A stretch of DNA of 64,000 nt. Source: a virus. Lineage: Duplodnaviria > Caudoviricetes. Made by a program: the position numbers and the translations under genes. The notes under the pieces are model-generated. The model saw nothing but the letters and a program-made list of their open reading frames with translations. It was not told the DNA's origin and did not search any database. Where the stretch lies: positions 64,001-128,000 of the IMG/VR virus record IMGVR_UViG_3300031134_000004. One strand, given 5' to 3'. This document shows, piece by piece, positions 28,857 to 39,582 of this stretch (positions are counted from its first letter, which is position 1; every line of letters begins with the position of its first letter).

Positions 28857-29432
28857 GTGACGCCCTCGCGCTCTATGAATGGCTACCTAAGAAAAATGCC
28901 TGCACACAAAAAAGAAACTCGCAAACACGACCATCCTCAATACAAACGTTGGTTAAGTATGAACCAGCGCTGTAACAATCCGTCTATCCGGGGTTGTAAT
29001 GAGCGTCGTGCTCTTGGAGTGAAAGTCGACCCTGTTTGGGAACAAGACAATCCTGAAGGACTCAACAACTTCACAATGTGGGTTGAGGAGAAGTTGAAAG
29101 AAACACCCGAACTACGTTCTGTAGAGTATCGCATCATTCGGACTGACCTTAGCAAAAACTATGGTCCTAACAACTGTATTCTGGGAACACCCCAAGAGGC
29201 CACGCAGCATCGTGTCACAAGTGTATTGACGGAAGAACTCGTCATTGCCATGCGTCGACATAAGCGCGCTAATCCGGATACCAGTTTAGCCCAAATGGAG
29301 AAACTCTTTGGACAACATCAAGTCAATATTTCACGCTGTCTTCGCGGTATTACGTGGGACAGTGTCAACCATATCGAAGCACCCATCCCGAAACACGGGA
29401 GCATTAAAGAGGACAAACAAGATGAACACTAA
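28857..29432 (+). CDS. HNH homing-endonuclease-like protein, apparently degenerate, with C-terminal HTH
   Basis: YKRWLSMNQRCNNP, VKVDPVW, NFTMWV and NYGPNNC match a phage HNH family; C-terminal SLAQMEKLFGQHQVNISRCLRG. The start may be 28876 or 28897. Confidence 0.6.
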   Translation: MTPSRSMNGYLRKMPAHKKETRKHDHPQYKRWLSMNQRCNNPSIRGCNERRALGVKVDPVWEQDNPEGLNNFTMWVEEKLKETPELRSVEYRIIRTDLSKNYGPNNCILGTPQEATQHRVTSVLTEELVIAMRRHKRANPDTSLAQMEKLFGQHQVNISRCLRGITWDSVNHIEAPIPKHGSIKEDKQDEH

Positions 29433-30591: not shown

Positions 30592-31899
30592 ATGGGTGGT
30601 TTGTCTGTACAGTGTGAGACCCCAGGTTGTTCAGAAAGGTACGATGGCGGTAATGGCACCACAAAGCCAGGACCCTATCGTCCTCAGGGGTATCATTTTA
30701 GTGAGAAAGCACGTATTCTTAAAGACGTCGCCACACTAGGATGGATTCACTTGAAAGAAAAGAATATCGACTACTGCCCCCAATGCGCAAATACCATGTA
30801 TGAGAGAATGAGAACAGCTCTCATGAAAGAACAAAACAGATCCATCGAGGAAGATAACATGACCGAACAAGTTACCGCACACATTCTGAACGATTCGCCA
30901 ATGGGCGTCATCAAAATCGAAGCCCTGGGTGAAGGACCATTTGGTGGCCACAACCACTACCTCATCACAGGCTTTGACAAGACCAAGAACCCCCACTACA
31001 GCGACCGCGATGCAGACATGGCGCATCACCGCGCTCAGACTGACATCTACTTCCAGCATGGCAATCCTGTACCCGATGGTCCGAACGGCATTACGATCGA
31101 AGTACTGCTCGCCATCGCCGCCCATCGCCTGGAAGGCTTCCAGAAAGGCAAGTTCGCTAACGAGCACAACGTGGTTGCCCTGGACAAGATCTACGGCGCC
31201 CTCGACGCTCTCAAAACGCGGGAGCTGAGTTACCTCAAACCTGACTCGGCACCCGACACGTCCAAGACTACGCACTTCCCGAATAAGGAACTGCAGTACT
31301 CGGTCAACACCTTGCGTGAATTCATGCATCTGTTTTCCAAAGACACGCTCGACAAAATGGAGCTGTGCCATTTCTCGGAAGAGTTGGTCGATCAGATGGA
31401 AGCAGAAGTTGGCGCGATGGATGTTTCGGAAATCATCAAGACAGAACTCATGGCTGCCATCCAGCGCTGCGCTGGCAAGTCCCTGATTTCGATCACCAAT
31501 ACGTCCGAGCAAGAACTGCCTGAACGCGTTGTCATGACCGATCCCGAAGAACTGTGCGACACTGCTTACTGGAGCGAATATCCACATCGCCCCATCAAAG
31601 CGCACGATGCTACGATTGAAGTGACCATTGTGACCGACGCCCGGCAAAGCGGCACCGACGTACTGGCTGAACACATTCGACGCACGCTCATCGACGGTGG
31701 TTACAAGCGGGTTGCGCAGTACGCCCGTATCGAAGAAGACGGTTCAGTCGATCCACGTCCAACCCATGGTTCGGACGCAAAACGGCTGGTGGAACTGTAT
31801 GGTCAGGAAACTGCTGACAAGATCATCGACAATCTGAAGAACGTCAACATCAAGATCGTCACTGACATCGTCGCAAGCAAGCAACGCACCCGGCAATGA
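30592..31899 (+). CDS. multidomain protein: N-terminal Cys4 Zn-ribbon-like region, Tad1-like signal-sponge domain and unknown C-terminal domain
   Basis: EGPFGGHNHYLI...IYFQHG...GPNGITIEVLLAIAAHRLEGFQKGKFANEHNVVALDKI aligns by eye with the Tad1 pattern EGPGGAYHEYVI...FQKG...DLLEIVRDRLKSFQAGPF...N..ALT. Confidence 0.7.
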   Translation: MGGLSVQCETPGCSERYDGGNGTTKPGPYRPQGYHFSEKARILKDVATLGWIHLKEKNIDYCPQCANTMYERMRTALMKEQNRSIEEDNMTEQVTAHILNDSPMGVIKIEALGEGPFGGHNHYLITGFDKTKNPHYSDRDADMAHHRAQTDIYFQHGNPVPDGPNGITIEVLLAIAAHRLEGFQKGKFANEHNVVALDKIYGALDALKTRELSYLKPDSAPDTSKTTHFPNKELQYSVNTLREFMHLFSKDTLDKMELCHFSEELVDQMEAEVGAMDVSEIIKTELMAAIQRCAGKSLISITNTSEQELPERVVMTDPEELCDTAYWSEYPHRPIKAHDATIEVTIVTDARQSGTDVLAEHIRRTLIDGGYKRVAQYARIEEDGSVDPRPTHGSDAKRLVELYGQETADKIIDNLKNVNIKIVTDIVASKQRTRQ

Positions 31900-32171
31900 A
31901 ACGCCACCAGCAGTTGCTCTTAATACTGCTGTACGGCGTCATGTCCTGCGCGATCGTATTGCCCGTCATGCGTTTTCTTGAAGCAACGCGTGTTTGGCAT
32001 ATCGAACGTGGGTACTACGAAATGCGGTACATGCGAGAACATAAGTGCTACCCAATTCCAGAACTGGAAAAGACGTACTTGATTCTTGAGTGCCAAGAAG
32101 GTCGGATGAATGCCGGTGACTTACGAGATCTCTCGTGGGACAACGTAGACATCAAGTTTCGTTTGTTCTAA
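31896..32171 (+). CDS. small membrane-anchored protein
   Basis: ATGA overlap; N-terminal TM segment. Confidence 0.6.
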   Translation: MKRHQQLLLILLYGVMSCAIVLPVMRFLEATRVWHIERGYYEMRYMREHKCYPIPELEKTYLILECQEGRMNAGDLRDLSWDNVDIKFRLF

Positions 32172-32449: not shown

Positions 32450-33460
32450 ATGTCCAAGGCAATTCAAATCCACAGTGGTGTTCGTATCGGTGGTGCGCTC
32501 ACGCTGACGCTGGGTCAAACCCAGTTCCCAGCTAACCCGAAGCCGGGTCAGGTCGATCTCGTCAACCGTGGTCTGTATGGTTACCTCGACATCGGCAACG
32601 GCCTGCTGAGCTGGTATCCGCTGGTTAAAGCACCTGACACTTACCAGCACAACCAAGACGTTGCTGCTGAAGAGTGGGTCGTCAACCACCAACTCAACAC
32701 CGAAAACATCTGGTATCAAATCCAGGATGAAAACGGCCAGATGATCCTGCCAATGGGCGTGGACATCGTCAACGAAAACCAAGCCCGCCTGACGTTTAGC
32801 GAACCGGCTGTCGGTAAAGTACTGGTCTTGACGACCGGTGGTGAACGCGGTACGGCTGGTGCCGATGGCGCTGCTGGTAAAGATGGTGCGGCCGGTAAAG
32901 ACGGTGAATCGACTTACCAGATCGCTGTGCGTAACGGTTTCATCGGTACTGAAGTGCAGTGGCTCCAAAGTATCGTTGGTGCCGCCGGTAAAGACGGTAT
33001 CAATGGTGCTGACGGCAAAGACGGCATTAACGGTAAGGACGGCGCCAACGGCAAAGACGGTGCTAAAGGTGACACCGGTAACGATGGTCCGCGTGGTCTG
33101 CAAGGTCCAGCGGGCGGTACTGCCATTTACCTCGACAAAGGCACCAACGCCGTTGCAGGTGCCACCGTTACCTTCAACGCCACCGAAGCACAACATCAAC
33201 GCCTGCAAGTGGGCGCTGCGACCACGATCGCCCTTGCCGGCTGGCCTGAAGGCAATCACACGGGCGAACTGATGCTCGAGCTGGTCAACGGTGCTGCATT
33301 TACCTTGACCTTCCCAACCATCAAGTGGCTCAAGTCCGACGGTACGTTCGTTACCTCGTTTGCAGCATCGGACACGCCACTGCAAGCTAACGGCACGGAC
33401 TTCCTGCTGTTGTGGACGCGTGACAATGGTGCGACGGTCTACGGTAAAGTGATGCGTTAA
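32450..33460 (+). CDS. collagen-like fibre protein with HQLNT module and C-terminal adaptor-like domain
   Basis: G-x-y runs (GKDGAAGKDG, GPRGLQGPAG), one YQIAVRNGFIGTE repeat, ends in GKVMR. Confidence 0.75.
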   Translation: MSKAIQIHSGVRIGGALTLTLGQTQFPANPKPGQVDLVNRGLYGYLDIGNGLLSWYPLVKAPDTYQHNQDVAAEEWVVNHQLNTENIWYQIQDENGQMILPMGVDIVNENQARLTFSEPAVGKVLVLTTGGERGTAGADGAAGKDGAAGKDGESTYQIAVRNGFIGTEVQWLQSIVGAAGKDGINGADGKDGINGKDGANGKDGAKGDTGNDGPRGLQGPAGGTAIYLDKGTNAVAGATVTFNATEAQHQRLQVGAATTIALAGWPEGNHTGELMLELVNGAAFTLTFPTIKWLKSDGTFVTSFAASDTPLQANGTDFLLLWTRDNGATVYGKVMR

Positions 33461-33537
33461 TTCGTCTTACATAATCGCCCAAGACCCTCTACTTCGGTAG
33501 AGGGTTTTTCTTCGTCTCGATAAAAAAAAGGATACCC

Positions 33538-34620
33538 ATGTTTATCCGCACAATGATGTTCGCAGGTACGCCTAAAAAGCGCATCCCTACGCTTTGCGAA
33601 CTTTATATCTTTAACTCCAATGCTGATGACGTACGGGAAATGTACGGCGTTGACACTGGAAAGAGCACCTTCACAAAACTGCCCAATCCACCACGCGCTC
33701 CAGTTCAAACTTGGAATGCTGTGTATTCGCCAGACGGTAACTTCCTTGTTTTGGTGTTGCGTTACGCGCCGTTTCTTTCGCTGTTTCGTCGTGATTCTGC
33801 CGGTCAATATACCCCAGTTACGTTTGGAAACGTCACAGGCAATCCTCTGCCAAGCGAACCTGCTATCGATGGCGTGTCCTTTACGGCAGATAGTAAGCGT
33901 ATGGTTGCTGTGCCTTCAAGCACTGCCTTTCCACACGTTTATGAATTGACGGAAGACAAAAGTACGTATGCTTTTAAGTCTAGCTTGAGTGCCGGTAACC
34001 AAGGTACTGTCAGTTCTGCTATTGTCTCTCCAGACGGTACGCTGCTTGCTCTTTCTGCCAACGCCACTCGCGGTGCTTACATCTTCAAGTGGAATGGTAC
34101 GAATTATGCGTACTTCAACAGTTCCGCAGACTATGGAAATACTTCATTAGGCAATTCTCCAAAAATGCTGTGGACCAAAGACAGTCAGCGCCTTATCGCC
34201 GCCAATACTAACGAGAGCTATTCGTTGTTCATTTGGCGGCGCGGTGCCAACGATGTGTTCACTCGCATTCTCACTCGCGCCATCACCAACGGTGTTCGAA
34301 ATCTTGCGCTCAGTCCAGATGAAACCCATTTGATGACTGGTGGCGCGTCTTCCACTAAACTCTTACTGCAAGGCTTTAAGTGGGATGGTGCGAGCACGCT
34401 GACGGCTTTGTCTGTCACACCACTGCCTCCTAACAGTGTGGAGTCCTTCTCGTTCACCCCAGATGGTAACTATCTGGCAGTGGGTCACACGCAGTACAAT
34501 GCTTACAATTCCGCAGTGTCGATTTATGCACGCACGGGCGACGCTTATGCTCGTGTTGCAGCAGACTTTAGTACGTATCGCGCCACTGGTCGTGCTGTGT
34601 TCCGGCCTGTTCTTCAATAA
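33538..34620 (+). CDS. WD40-like beta-propeller protein 1
   Basis: Repeating (Y/F/V/L)(S/T)(P/A)D(G/S/E) blades about 45-50 aa apart. Confidence 0.8.
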   Translation: MFIRTMMFAGTPKKRIPTLCELYIFNSNADDVREMYGVDTGKSTFTKLPNPPRAPVQTWNAVYSPDGNFLVLVLRYAPFLSLFRRDSAGQYTPVTFGNVTGNPLPSEPAIDGVSFTADSKRMVAVPSSTAFPHVYELTEDKSTYAFKSSLSAGNQGTVSSAIVSPDGTLLALSANATRGAYIFKWNGTNYAYFNSSADYGNTSLGNSPKMLWTKDSQRLIAANTNESYSLFIWRRGANDVFTRILTRAITNGVRNLALSPDETHLMTGGASSTKLLLQGFKWDGASTLTALSVTPLPPNSVESFSFTPDGNYLAVGHTQYNAYNSAVSIYARTGDAYARVAADFSTYRATGRAVFRPVLQ

Positions 34621-34629
34621 GGAGAAGCG

Positions 34630-35688
34630 ATGTCTTCCCGCATGTTTAAATACCATACGCTGACAAACGCACCTAAAGTACTTCCCAAAAGGGTGCGGTT
34701 GTTTCTTGGCTCTGTAACGCAAAGTGCCATTGGTCGAATGTACCTTAACGATCCGAGTAAAGATACATTCGAGGCCACGCTCACACCTACGCTTCGTTCC
34801 AACGCATCCAACGCGCAGTTTAGTCCAGATGGTAAGTTCTTTGTGGTGACTTCGATGAATGCACCGTACGCAGTGTTGTTCCGTAGAGATGACGACGGCA
34901 ACTATGTGGAGGTTGCTGACAGTGGTCTGAACCCAACCAACGTCGCAAGCGTTGTCAAAGGAAAAAGCATTTGCTTTAGTACAGATGGTTCTATCTTAAC
35001 GTTTAGTGGTAATGGTTCGCGCTTGTATTTTTTCAGGCGTCGTGCAGATGGTTCCACGTACGACTTCGTCTCCAAGGTCGCCAGCTCGTCTGATTTTTCA
35101 GCACTGAGTCCCGATGGCCAGTACGCTGCTATCGCGGCCGGTGGTGACCAGCTGTACATGTACAAACGCAATGGTGACGTCTTTAGCTACTTGAATTTTT
35201 ACGACCTTAATTTAAGTAGCGGCAGCATTCAGCACGTGGTGTGGGGTAAAGATGGTAAGTACCTCTTTGTTTGCACAAGCAATGAATCACGCATACTTGC
35301 TATTGTGAGCTTTTTCAACGAAGTCATGACGCAGGTGAGTTCAGCAACTGGACCTGGTTATCCAGAATCCATCGCTGTGAGTCCAGATGGTCAGCACATT
35401 GCCATCACTGGGACTAATTACCAAAGTTCATTCCTGCAAATGTACAAATGGGAACCAACCATCCCGCGTCTTACCACGATTACGATGACAGGAAGACCTG
35501 CTGAAGCATCTTACGGTGCTGCGTTTAGTCCTGATGGTGTGTATTTCGCGTACGGACATCGCACACTCAATAACAGCAGTTTGAAAGTTTGGCGCCGTAT
35601 TGGCGATGCGTATATTTTGCTCAATACTGGCATTCCGGCGTTTCCTGAAAATTCCGGCTGTCGGCCAGTGTTTAGCCCTATTGTTTAA
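34630..35688 (+). CDS. WD40-like beta-propeller protein 2
   Basis: FSPDG, FSTDG, LSPDG, WGKDG and VSPDG blades; aggag SD. Confidence 0.8.
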   Translation: MSSRMFKYHTLTNAPKVLPKRVRLFLGSVTQSAIGRMYLNDPSKDTFEATLTPTLRSNASNAQFSPDGKFFVVTSMNAPYAVLFRRDDDGNYVEVADSGLNPTNVASVVKGKSICFSTDGSILTFSGNGSRLYFFRRRADGSTYDFVSKVASSSDFSALSPDGQYAAIAAGGDQLYMYKRNGDVFSYLNFYDLNLSSGSIQHVVWGKDGKYLFVCTSNESRILAIVSFFNEVMTQVSSATGPGYPESIAVSPDGQHIAITGTNYQSSFLQMYKWEPTIPRLTTITMTGRPAEASYGAAFSPDGVYFAYGHRTLNNSSLKVWRRIGDAYILLNTGIPAFPENSGCRPVFSPIV

Positions 35689-35702
35689 TAAAAGGATTCA
35701 TC

Positions 35703-36734
35703 ATGTCTTCACGGCTGTTTAAGCACCAAATGGCGAGTACGGCTCGTCCTCCAGTTCAGCCCCATCTGCTCAATTCGATGGCAGATATTTACGGCTTTAA
35801 TAACAAGACCGACACGTTCACAAAACAAGGTCGCATCCCGGCAGTTGAGCCATCCTCGACCATGTCGTATAACGGCATCCACGTCTCGCCCGATGGCCGT
35901 TACGTCGTGACCACCACGTCGACCACCGGTGTGGTTGATGCCAATGCTGTTTATAAGCGCACTGCGGGCGGTTATGTGCGGCTGTCATTGCCTAACTCGT
36001 CAGGTGAGTTCAATAGCGTTTGCTGGAGTAAAGACAGCAAAAACCTGTTAATTGGTAACGGCAGTACGCTTCGCTGGTATCGTCTCAACGCTGACGGACA
36101 ATTCGTACAAGTGACAACGCTTGGGTTTGCTTATCGCGTCATGAGTATCGCGCTGTCGGAGTCCGGTAAGTTTTTGGCAGTCTCGCAGCAACTGACTGTT
36201 TTCTTGTACATGTATCCAATTGATCTTGTTACGGGTAAATTTGGCGCATCGATGAGCGTTGGCACGCAGCCAGGTAACTACGCAGCGAAGATCAAGTTTG
36301 TTGGAAGTGATTTGCTGTATTTCGGCACTTCTTCCAGTGGCGGTAACTTCATTTATTCGATTAATGAAACTACCGGTGCAGTCACCCGGTCTGTACCGAC
36401 AGGTGCCTCCAGCACTTACGCGTATTCGATGGCTGTGAGTGCCGACAATAAGTACGTCGCTGTGGGTCGTCTTCAAGGTCTGGATTATTACGCTTACGAC
36501 AGTGCAACGCGGTCGTACCGGAAAATCTACGAGAATCTCTTCGGTGCTCGTACGCTGGATGTGGCGTTTTCCAAAGACGGCAACTACCTCGCTCTGGCAC
36601 TCAACGCTGCGCCGCACGTGCTCGTTTATCGTCGTGTGGGTGACACGCTCGTACAACTTACCATCCCTGCTGCTACTGTGCCTCCAACGGGCGGCATGAA
36701 CGGTGTGGGTTTTGCAGAACCAGACGGGTACTAA
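35703..36734 (+). CDS. WD40-like beta-propeller protein 3
   Basis: VSPDG, WSKDS, LSESG, VSADN and FSKDG blades; aagga SD. Confidence 0.8.
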   Translation: MSSRLFKHQMASTARPPVQPHLLNSMADIYGFNNKTDTFTKQGRIPAVEPSSTMSYNGIHVSPDGRYVVTTTSTTGVVDANAVYKRTAGGYVRLSLPNSSGEFNSVCWSKDSKNLLIGNGSTLRWYRLNADGQFVQVTTLGFAYRVMSIALSESGKFLAVSQQLTVFLYMYPIDLVTGKFGASMSVGTQPGNYAAKIKFVGSDLLYFGTSSSGGNFIYSINETTGAVTRSVPTGASSTYAYSMAVSADNKYVAVGRLQGLDYYAYDSATRSYRKIYENLFGARTLDVAFSKDGNYLALALNAAPHVLVYRRVGDTLVQLTIPAATVPPTGGMNGVGFAEPDGY

Positions 36735-38082: not shown

Positions 38083-39582
38083 ATGGGTACTGCACTGAAA
38101 ATCTCCGAACTCCCAACCGCCGGGGAAGTATCGGGCAGCGAATTGCTGGAAATTGTACAAGACGGCGTGAACAAAAGCGTTCTGGTAAGCACCCTCGTAC
38201 CGCGCGCTCGTGACGGTCGCGATGGTAAAGACGGCGTGGACGGCAAGAGCCCGTTCGAGCTGGCCCAGCGCAATGGCTTTACTGGCACGGAAGTCGAGTG
38301 GCTGGCAAGTCTGAAAGCCCAAGACGGCGTTGACGGTATCGATGGTACGGACGGTACGGACGGCCGCGATGGCACCAATGGCAAAGATGGCGAATCGAAC
38401 TACCAGGTCGCCGTACGCAATGGTTTCGTCGGCACTGAAGCCCAATACCTGGCTTCCCTTAAAGGCACCGCTGGCCGTGATGGTACGAACGGCAAGGATG
38501 GTGTCGATGGCAAGGACGGCACCAACGGCAAAGATGGCGCGCCTGGTAAAAGCAACTACCAGATCGCTGTGGACAACGGCTTTGAAGGCACCGAGGCGCA
38601 ATACCTGACCTCGACTGCTGGTGAAGACGGTCGTGACGGTGTGGATGGTCAAGACGGTGAAGGCATCTACCAACTGGCACGCCGCAATGGCTTTGTCGGT
38701 TCGGAAGCTGAATACCTCGCCTCGATCAAAGGCGCTAACGGCGCTGATGGTATCGATGGTGAATCGAACTACCAGCGTGCTGTGGAACTGGGTCTGTTTG
38801 TGGGTACGGAAGCAGCGTACCTGGCTTCGCTCAAAGGTGCCGATGGTGTTGATGGCACTGATGGTGTCGACGGTACTGACGGTACTGATGGTGCCGATGG
38901 TATGGATATCTACGCGCTGGCTAAGTCGAAAGGCTACGCTGGTTCGGAAGATCAATACCTGGCTTCGCTGCACGGTCGTGATGGTACGAACGGCAAGGAT
39001 GGCACCAATGGTAAGGATGGTGTCAATGGTAAGTCCTCGTATGAAGTTGCCAAAGCAGGTGGTTACAACGGTAGCGAAGCGGAATGGCTGCTCTCCCTTA
39101 AAGGCACTGCTGGCAAAGATGGCGTCGACGGTAAGAGCGCTTACCAAGTCGCTACTGCTGGCGGTTACGTCGGTACGGAAGCTGCGTGGCTGCTGAGCTT
39201 GAAGGGTGCACGCGGTGACGCAGGTCCTCCAGGCGGTGAGGCGACGTTCTTTGACCTGGGTAAGAACACTGTTGCCGGTACGGTGATGACGTTCGACCAG
39301 ACCAAGGGTACTGTGCAAAAGCTGGAAGTTGGTGCGCCAACGACCGTTGCTCTGTCGAACTTCGCCCCAGCTGGCCGCAGCAGCGAACTCGTGCTCCAAC
39401 TGGTCAATGGTGGACTGTTCACTACCACGTTCCCATCGGATGTGAACTGGATCAAGATCGATGGCACCACCACCAAAGTGTTTGCTGAAACGGGCATTGC
39501 CCTGCAAGGCGCTGGTGTGGACTTCGTGATGTTCTGGTCCTACGACGGCGGTGTTACTGTCTTCGGTAAAGTCATGCGTTAA
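38083..39582 (+). CDS. collagen-like fibre protein with eight helical spacer repeats and C-terminal adaptor-like domain
   Basis: N-terminal KISELP, G-x-DG-x-DG runs, C-terminal domain paralogous to 32450-33460, ends in GKVMR. Confidence 0.8.
   Translation: MGTALKISELPTAGEVSGSELLEIVQDGVNKSVLVSTLVPRARDGRDGKDGVDGKSPFELAQRNGFTGTEVEWLASLKAQDGVDGIDGTDGTDGRDGTNGKDGESNYQVAVRNGFVGTEAQYLASLKGTAGRDGTNGKDGVDGKDGTNGKDGAPGKSNYQIAVDNGFEGTEAQYLTSTAGEDGRDGVDGQDGEGIYQLARRNGFVGSEAEYLASIKGANGADGIDGESNYQRAVELGLFVGTEAAYLASLKGADGVDGTDGVDGTDGTDGADGMDIYALAKSKGYAGSEDQYLASLHGRDGTNGKDGTNGKDGVNGKSSYEVAKAGGYNGSEAEWLLSLKGTAGKDGVDGKSAYQVATAGGYVGTEAAWLLSLKGARGDAGPPGGEATFFDLGKNTVAGTVMTFDQTKGTVQKLEVGAPTTVALSNFAPAGRSSELVLQLVNGGLFTTTFPSDVNWIKIDGTTTKVFAETGIALQGAGVDFVMFWSYDGGVTVFGKVMR
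38215..39235 (+). repeat. coding tandem repeat: (G-x-DG)n collagen plus S.YQ.A...G(F/Y).G(T/S)EA.(W/Y)L.SLKG, eight copies
   Basis: Eight units counted in the translation. Confidence 0.85.

Follow-up and report, generated by a model that had tools for sequence, protein, structure and literature searches.

The window analysed here is a stretch of 64,000 nucleotides (bases 64001-128000 of a 224,654-bp IMG/VR virus record, IMGVR_UViG_3300031134_000004; Caudoviricetes), and one of its open reading frames (ORFs), P0001, encodes a protein in which a domain homologous to Tad1 (module B) lies between a zinc-ribbon-like N-terminal module (A) and two small C-terminal modules (C and D; Table 1). With a probability of roughly 55%, the protein is a Tad1-family signal sponge of altered specificity bearing accessory cassettes that would add binding or oligomerising functions. 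This reading is built on the homology of module B, on the pattern of kept and lost ligand-binding residues, and on the recurrence of the same modules, alone or in shuffled order, in other proteins.

A match to Tad1 had been proposed in an earlier reading of the DNA that was made without database searches (the sequence-only reading), and it is borne out far beyond chance. The residues quoted in that reading are present, and residues 90-211 (encoded at 30859-31224) are homologous to Tad1 by phmmer, by a subfamily profile and by a hidden Markov model (HMM) of single-domain homologs. A phmmer search of the PDB with the whole protein retrieved gp184 of phage phiKZ (8Y6V chain I) at an E-value of 1.2e-6 and chains of CbTad1 and CmTad1 at about 0.04, while a profile of four members of the fusion subfamily retrieved gp184 at 3e-13 and CbTad1 (7uav) at 2.9e-7. 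An HMM built from nine single-domain homologs that bear the Pfam domain PF24729 (Acb2_Tad1_hairpin) covers residues 90-214 end to end with 115 bits, a score above the 99.5 bits that the same model gives to phiKZ gp184 itself. A relative that is 93% identical, P0002, carries a precomputed PF24729 match, and the just three PHROGs families found with the whole protein, all of unknown function, fall on the Tad1 part. Module B is also the best-conserved portion of the protein, being 63% identical to its counterpart in the more distant relative P0003 versus 38% for the C-terminal half. Homology of module B to Tad1 over the whole length of the domain is shown by these sequence comparisons.

Superposition on Tad1, the structural point on which the sequence-only reading had staked this claim, is seen in the predicted fold as well. 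The full-length AlphaFold2 (AF2) model has a mean predicted local distance difference test (pLDDT) score of 70, rising above 90 in the helical hairpin, and its top nine Foldseek matches are nine Tad1 chains, with probabilities of 0.97-0.99 and template modelling (TM) scores by target of 0.46-0.52. Alignment to Tad1 with VIA-align gave Z-scores of 5.8-6.8, and the hairpin superposes at 1.0 Å over 52 residues with 29% identity. The sheet half of the model appears moderately defined and is less certain than the hairpin.

The ligand-binding residues were mapped by sequence alignment to CbTad1, for which the roles of individual residues are taken from mutational data (PMC10680739). Three of the four residues that form the pocket for glycocyclic ADP-ribose (gcADPR) and dinucleotides are kept, F82, N92 and R109 of CbTad1 corresponding to F183, N193 and R210 here, and all three are invariant in all homologs aligned. 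The fourth, R113, is replaced by Y214, a tyrosine that is invariant in the fusion subfamily. The cyclic-trinucleotide site of CbTad1, where R90 and T97 contact the phosphates and also form part of the hexamer interface, is not kept, these residues being E191 and D198. Binding of trinucleotides in the manner of CbTad1 is thus unlikely, as the phosphate-coordinating positions are occupied by Glu and Asp. Other Tad1 homologs also vary at this site, with E and N in phiKZ gp184, and for this reason it defines a function of CbTad1 and CmTad1 and not of the family. At the C-terminus of the domain, the canonical tail R..R.ARGVEGT gives way to RELSYLKP and a linker, in keeping with the replacement of the usual C-terminal segment that had been noticed from the sequence alone. 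The closest single-domain relatives, P0016 and P0017, are also without the second Arg and the tail, so that these losses are best regarded as a subclade trait that predates the fusion, not as its consequence. The mapping suggests that a nucleotide pocket has been kept with changed specificity and with no CbTad1-style trinucleotide site, and altered ligand specificity, one of the options put forward in the sequence-only reading, is plausible on these grounds.

The protein is longer than was first proposed. The ORF had been taken to start at 30859, which is the codon of an internal methionine, Met90; the real start is the ATG at 30592, which lies 12 nt past the stop of the preceding ORF and has an AAGGA Shine-Dalgarno-like (SD-like) motif 11 nt upstream. 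The 89 residues ahead of Met90 are coding, since they contain no stop, follow this AAGGA motif, and form a module that P0003 shares at 57% identity, the four Cys being invariant in the alignment. In both orthologs an SD-like motif also stands ahead of the internal Met with which the Tad1 module begins (window 30840-30861; L003 10215-10232), and it reads GAGGAAG-5 nt-ATG in P0001 and AAGGAA-6 nt-ATG in the relative, with different encoded residues. This motif could drive a shorter B-C-D isoform, or it could be the relic of genes that were once separate.

Judged from its conservation, the fusion is genuine and selected, since it recurs in P0002 and in P0003 (39% identity, 100% coverage) in a collinear locus and since B-C and B-D-C variants also exist. 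The order of modules is A-B-C-C-D in P0003, where module C is duplicated, B-D-C in P0004 and B-C in P0015, module C being C-terminal in the latter two. When 1.84 billion representative proteins were searched exhaustively with HMMER, the C-terminal half as query yielded 12 matches in all. Besides the two relatives of full length, these include stand-alone module C proteins that match the helical part only (P0005, 87 aa, 1.1e-11; P0006, 84 aa, 1.2e-10) and stand-alone module D proteins of 96-130 aa that match the last part only (P0008, P0009 and P0011-14; E-values of 3e-5 to 6e-4); P0007 is a fragment comprised of the C-terminal piece of P0004, and P0010 was rejected as a spurious repeat protein. 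The genes for the stand-alone proteins reside on phage-like contigs of small unknown genes. What had been described as one unknown domain of ~220 aa behind the Tad1 part is, then, two separable modules, C and D, each of which is found alone elsewhere.

Module A carries a strongly conserved YDGGNG..KPGPYRP.GYHFSEK stretch followed by a long helix, and its AF2 model displays short strands and a helix at residues 63-87 (pLDDT 62-76) with an insert at residues 20-48 that falls below 50. A word-indexed search found no sequence homologs of this module, and in the ESM Atlas feature search residues 1-92 gave leads only and residues 218-435 no usable match. Module C is typified by the conserved motifs FS..TL, IS.E.A..M..DI and a C-terminal RGK(T/S)(I/L), which is AGKS in P0001. 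Conserved in module D are a strand-loop of the form P(E/D)DA.I.V.I.(T/S)D.RQ.G, the motif GY.NV, a hydrophobic strand that ends in D, and a terminal TRQ. Pfam held nothing for the whole protein, its parts (including residues 218-435) or its relatives, PHROGs nothing for C, D or their stand-alone homologs, and a profile of the C-terminal half found nothing in the PDB below an E-value of 0.69. A Foldseek search of PDB, BFVD and AFDB clusters with the C-terminal model found nothing at E <= 0.001, none of the TM scores exceeding 0.25, and the wide VIA-align search with module C returned generic small helical bundles alone (Z <= 5.7). The charge and pI of the modules were uninformative. Two identities were tried for module C and rejected: a duplicated Tad1 hairpin, for which hhalign between the modules gave a probability below 1%, and Sequestin (PF21825), which has no genome match at E <= 10 and no Pfam match for residues 218-435, as judged with sequence models only. 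Models of Tad2 (PF11195) and Acb4 (PF13876) likewise have no match in the genome.

The segment VTIVTDARQSGTDVLAEHIRRTL, which spans residues 344-366 within the ~220 residues after the Tad1 part, had been read as a degenerate P-loop-like element. As a guess at the level of fold this is reasonable: the structural neighbours of module D include, repeatedly, thymidine kinase 1 (TK1), APS kinase, thymidylate kinase, FtsY, MeaB and a designed P-loop ATPase, with Z-scores of 3.7-4.9 and TM below 0.45, a range that the tool calls common arrangements, and a shape search of the ESM Atlas returned P-loop fragments at TM <= 0.44. These similarities are weak but recurrent, and the P-loop proteins are aligned from their first strand. 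The (T/S)D.RQ.G loop, TDARQSGT in P0001, occupies the position of Walker A, and the last strand ends in an Asp that is reminiscent of Walker B. The loop is without the Walker A lysine and does not match GxxxxGK[ST], GK being present in only three stand-alone members. Module D looks like a miniaturised P-loop-type fold devoid of the catalytic lysine in the model, and the nucleotide-processing role that had been proposed for this part of the protein finds no backing, there being no enzyme family match and no such lysine.

A tandem cluster of D-like ORFs was also observed outside the window, at about 139,800-144,100 of the same record (G000:C1; locus L010), and consists of five ORFs on the same strand. 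By blastp, four of the five are linked, p3 to p4 (2.5e-7), p1 to p4 (7e-4) and p3 to p5 (0.017), and p2 is related only by eye. One of these ORFs, a paralog in the same genome, is matched by the module D HMM at an E-value of 3.9e-5 and has the sequence GDQDSGKT, and a second has a canonical Walker A, GTSNTGKT. Comparison of module D with the cluster by hhalign gave a probability of 49% and an E-value of 1.7e-4, and the cluster ORFs have no Pfam or PHROG matches.

By analogy with other Tad1 proteins, module B would oligomerise and sequester a nucleotide immune signal of the Thoeris type, or of the type used by cyclic-oligonucleotide-based antiphage signalling systems (CBASS), in the host cytoplasm. 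A cytoplasmic signal defence is something that a phage nucleus would not shield against, and this phage is, by its gene content, of the nucleus-forming jumbo type with a chimallivirus-like genome, since it encodes homologs, found by tblastn, of the phiKZ proteins chimallin (5e-16), PhuZ (6e-16) and two RNA polymerase subunits (6e-79 and 3e-106); the sequence-only reading had supposed as much. The ligand range would differ from that of CbTad1, given a subfamily-invariant Tyr for the second pocket Arg, a linker in place of the lid and tail, and Glu and Asp at the trinucleotide contacts. Modules A, C and D are read as separable accessory cassettes because C and D are found free as phage proteins of 84-130 aa and, in shuffled order, beside Tad1 domains, and their contribution is most likely another binding or oligomerising activity and not catalysis. 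The same pattern led others to a new sponge family by way of fusions with Tad2 and Acb4 (bioRxiv 10.1101/2025.07.12.664507), and the Tad1 of phiKZ is a known anti-defence protein of a jumbo phage.

Several observations weigh against this proposal. The Pfam PF24729 model gives no reportable match to the fusion protein in hmmscan, the AF2 models are moderate (mean pLDDT about 70) and derive from shallow alignments of 14 and 23 rows, and the sheet half of Tad1 superposes only loosely in VIA-align (79-82 residues, sheet and hairpin together, at 3.9-4.6 Å), the hairpin alone being tight. Modules C and D show no similarity to known sponges, with no Sequestin, Tad2 or Acb4 in the genome and no Acb2 in the PDB searches, and the neighbourhoods of the stand-alone C and D genes contain no recognisable anti-defence genes and no adjacent Tad1. 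Moreover, the domain has lost a pocket Arg, its C-terminal lid and the two trinucleotide contacts, and sponge activity could have gone with them altogether. A Tad1 fold co-opted for a non-sponge role, structural or protein-binding, would no longer bind immune signals and would account for the Tyr at R113, the absent lid and the Glu and Asp at R90 and T97, and the embedding of Tad1 between other modules could block the formation of a hexamer. This is nevertheless distinctly unlikely, as the pocket F, N and R do not vary within the fusion subfamily, the Tad1 module is conserved best, and P0016 and P0017 share the loss of the second Arg and tail, so that these changes are older than the fusion and are also seen in ordinary small proteins of Tad1 type.

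Also unlikely, and compatible with sponge function, is a protein that is packaged in the virion and injected on the model of gp184, in which the extra module or modules would anchor in the capsid, the prohead protease would free the Tad1 part, and this part would be delivered with the DNA. The gp184 protein of phiKZ is a Tad1 of the inner vertex complex of the capsid that is processed by the head protease and reported to be injected. In phage FLC9, gp131 presents Tad1 behind a long extension. Weak hints in the same direction come from the position of the fusion gene, which in this phage, as in its relative, is directly upstream of a block of virion-type genes for collagen-like fibre and beta-propeller proteins, and from an [S/A]-I-E motif at the A/B boundary of both full-length orthologs (SIE 84-86, AIE 78-80), the phiKZ protease site being of the type S/A/G-x-E. 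A three-residue [S/A]-x-E motif, however, occurs 4-7 times per protein by chance, P0001 has no likeness to gp184 (or its capsid anchor) or to FLC9 gp131 outside the Tad1 domain, and P0004 and P0015 are without module A. The remaining alternative, that the fusion is an artefact in which neighbouring genes were welded together by misassembly, a frameshift or a unique deletion, could appeal to the SD-like motifs before the internal Met at the A/B boundary, as would be expected of a relic of separate genes. It is effectively refuted by conservation across diverged genomes, the four-module frame being open in three independent assemblies, including the 39%-identical ortholog in its collinear locus, and other relatives having different but related module orders. 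A bolder extension of the sponge reading is offered tentatively: C and/or D may be the founders of new families of phage anti-defence modules, such as extra immune-signal sponges, with D a miniaturised non-catalytic nucleotide binder derived from a P-loop, the whole protein a multi-specificity sponge of shuffled cassettes, and the D-like cluster of L010 a part of the same arsenal.

According to one report (PMC13282480), no anti-defence protein other than Tad1 has yet been described in jumbo phages, and fusions to known sponges have been a productive route to new sponge families (bioRxiv 10.1101/2025.07.12.664507). As a sponge with altered specificity and accessory cassettes, the protein would offer a variant of Tad1 whose pocket is altered and which is devoid of the canonical lid, and modules C and D are candidate new anti-immunity parts. 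These two modules are separable and very rare (about ten true matches among 1.8 billion representative proteins), and their small size would allow each to be expressed and assayed directly for signal binding and for the ability to inhibit Thoeris, CBASS or another signal-based defence. Should both lack such a role, the protein would simply be an unusual architecture of a known sponge.

Table 1. Positions of the fusion gene, its modules and associated features (window coordinates, except for the cluster in locus L010)
Feature	Position	Strand	Remarks
Whole ORF P0001	30592..31899	+	435 aa plus stop
Module A, residues 1-89	30592..30858	+	four-Cys zinc-ribbon-like: C8, C13, C62, C65
Module B, residues 90-217	30859..31242	+	Tad1-homologous; beta-sheet plus two-helix hairpin 169-215
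Module C, about residues 232-300	31285..31491	+	predicted four-helix mini-bundle, pLDDT 84-94
Module D, about residues 335-435	31594..31896	+	predicted beta-alpha-beta-alpha-alpha-beta-alpha mini-domain, pLDDT 66-90
HNH-endonuclease-like ORF	28857-29432	+	PHROG E about 1e-12; 67% identical, syntenic in 39%-level relative
Collagen-repeat fibre-like proteins and three tandem beta-propeller paralogs	32450-36734 and 38083-39582	+	beta-propeller paralogs: phrog_19311; faint WD40 matches in relative
D-like cluster ORFs	L010 1290-1769, 2281-2727, 2826-3143, 3741-4424, 4434-5576	same strand	N-termini share strand-loop-helix-'G(F/W).NVT' unit

The region of the window from 20 to 40 kb is collinear with the locus of P0003, which resides on a 168-kb contig of the relative. 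In both phages the genes for thymidylate kinase and synthase come first, followed by an HNH-like gene, two unknown genes, the fusion gene, a collagen-like fibre protein and beta-propeller paralogs. The collagen-repeat and beta-propeller block downstream probably supplies host-recognition parts. Given its level of identity and its synteny, the HNH-like ORF behaves like a conserved resident of the locus and not like a mobile homing endonuclease. Immediately behind the Tad1-fusion gene, a 91-aa ORF with a hydrophobic N-terminal helix (31896-32171, plus strand) overlaps the stop of that gene in an ATGA, which suggests translational coupling. This small ORF has no family match, and no counterpart of it was found in the locus of the relative among ORFs of at least 50 aa. 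Promoter and terminator scans stayed at or below chance, and megablast against the phage collection gave no match. Among the sequencing runs listed for this DNA none is of RNA, and the single run that contains it in full is a phyllosphere metagenome, possibly the sample of origin.

Among characterized proteins, CbTad1 (PDB 7UAV/7UAW/8SMD, 8KBE-H) and CmTad1 (8KBB-D) share with module B a fold of a sheet and a helical hairpin along with the pocket residues F82, N92 and R109. They are single-domain proteins of ~125 aa, whereas here Tad1 is internal to a 435-aa protein of four modules, and they differ from P0001 in R113 (Tyr), in R90 and T97 (Glu and Asp), and in the R..R.ARGVEGT tail, which is replaced. 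The premise of the sequence-only reading that Tad1 proteins are single-domain does not extend to the whole family, as phiKZ gp184 (230 aa) has an N-terminal extension and gp131 of Burkholderia phage FLC9 (338 aa) carries Tad1 C-terminally. The extension of gp184 is described as its capsid-anchored part (PMC11297242; bioRxiv 10.1101/2025.11.23.690004). Both of these jumbo-phage proteins present Tad1 within a longer chain, and they are the best relatives of module B in the PDB and among phage records (34% identity over 106 aa for gp184, 49% over 92 aa for gp131). They differ from the fusion protein in that their only extension is N-terminal and Tad1 forms the C-terminal end, and the canonical Arg-rich tail is still present in gp184. 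The Tad1 domain of FLC9 makes up the C-terminal third of a protein annotated as hypothetical (L012 1793-2809). In Aeromonas phage AerS_266 (L011 2342-3201), the end of a gene annotated as anti-Thoeris, with a Tad1 match, adjoins the start of one annotated as an anti-CBASS nuclease. A limited literature search found no published Tad1 that is internal between a zinc-ribbon-like module and two cassettes, nor a description of modules C and D.

For module D, the comparison is with P-loop kinases and SIMIBI GTPases (thymidine kinase 1, APS kinase, thymidylate kinase, FtsY/SRP54 and MeaB), whose N-terminal Walker A/B core aligns with the core and Asp-ending strand of the module in its predicted form. 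Module D differs in its size of ~100 aa, in its three strands, in the (T/S)D.RQ.G that stands for Walker A, and in having no match to any sequence family. For the architecture as a whole, the comparison is with the published sponge-sponge fusions Tad2-Acb4, Tad2-Sequestin and Sequestin-Acb4, which were used to discover Sequestin (bioRxiv 10.1101/2025.07.12.664507). The partners there differ, as the modules here are not Sequestin, Tad2 or Acb4, but the logic is shared: a known sponge is joined to short modules that are, for the most part, small stand-alone phage proteins.

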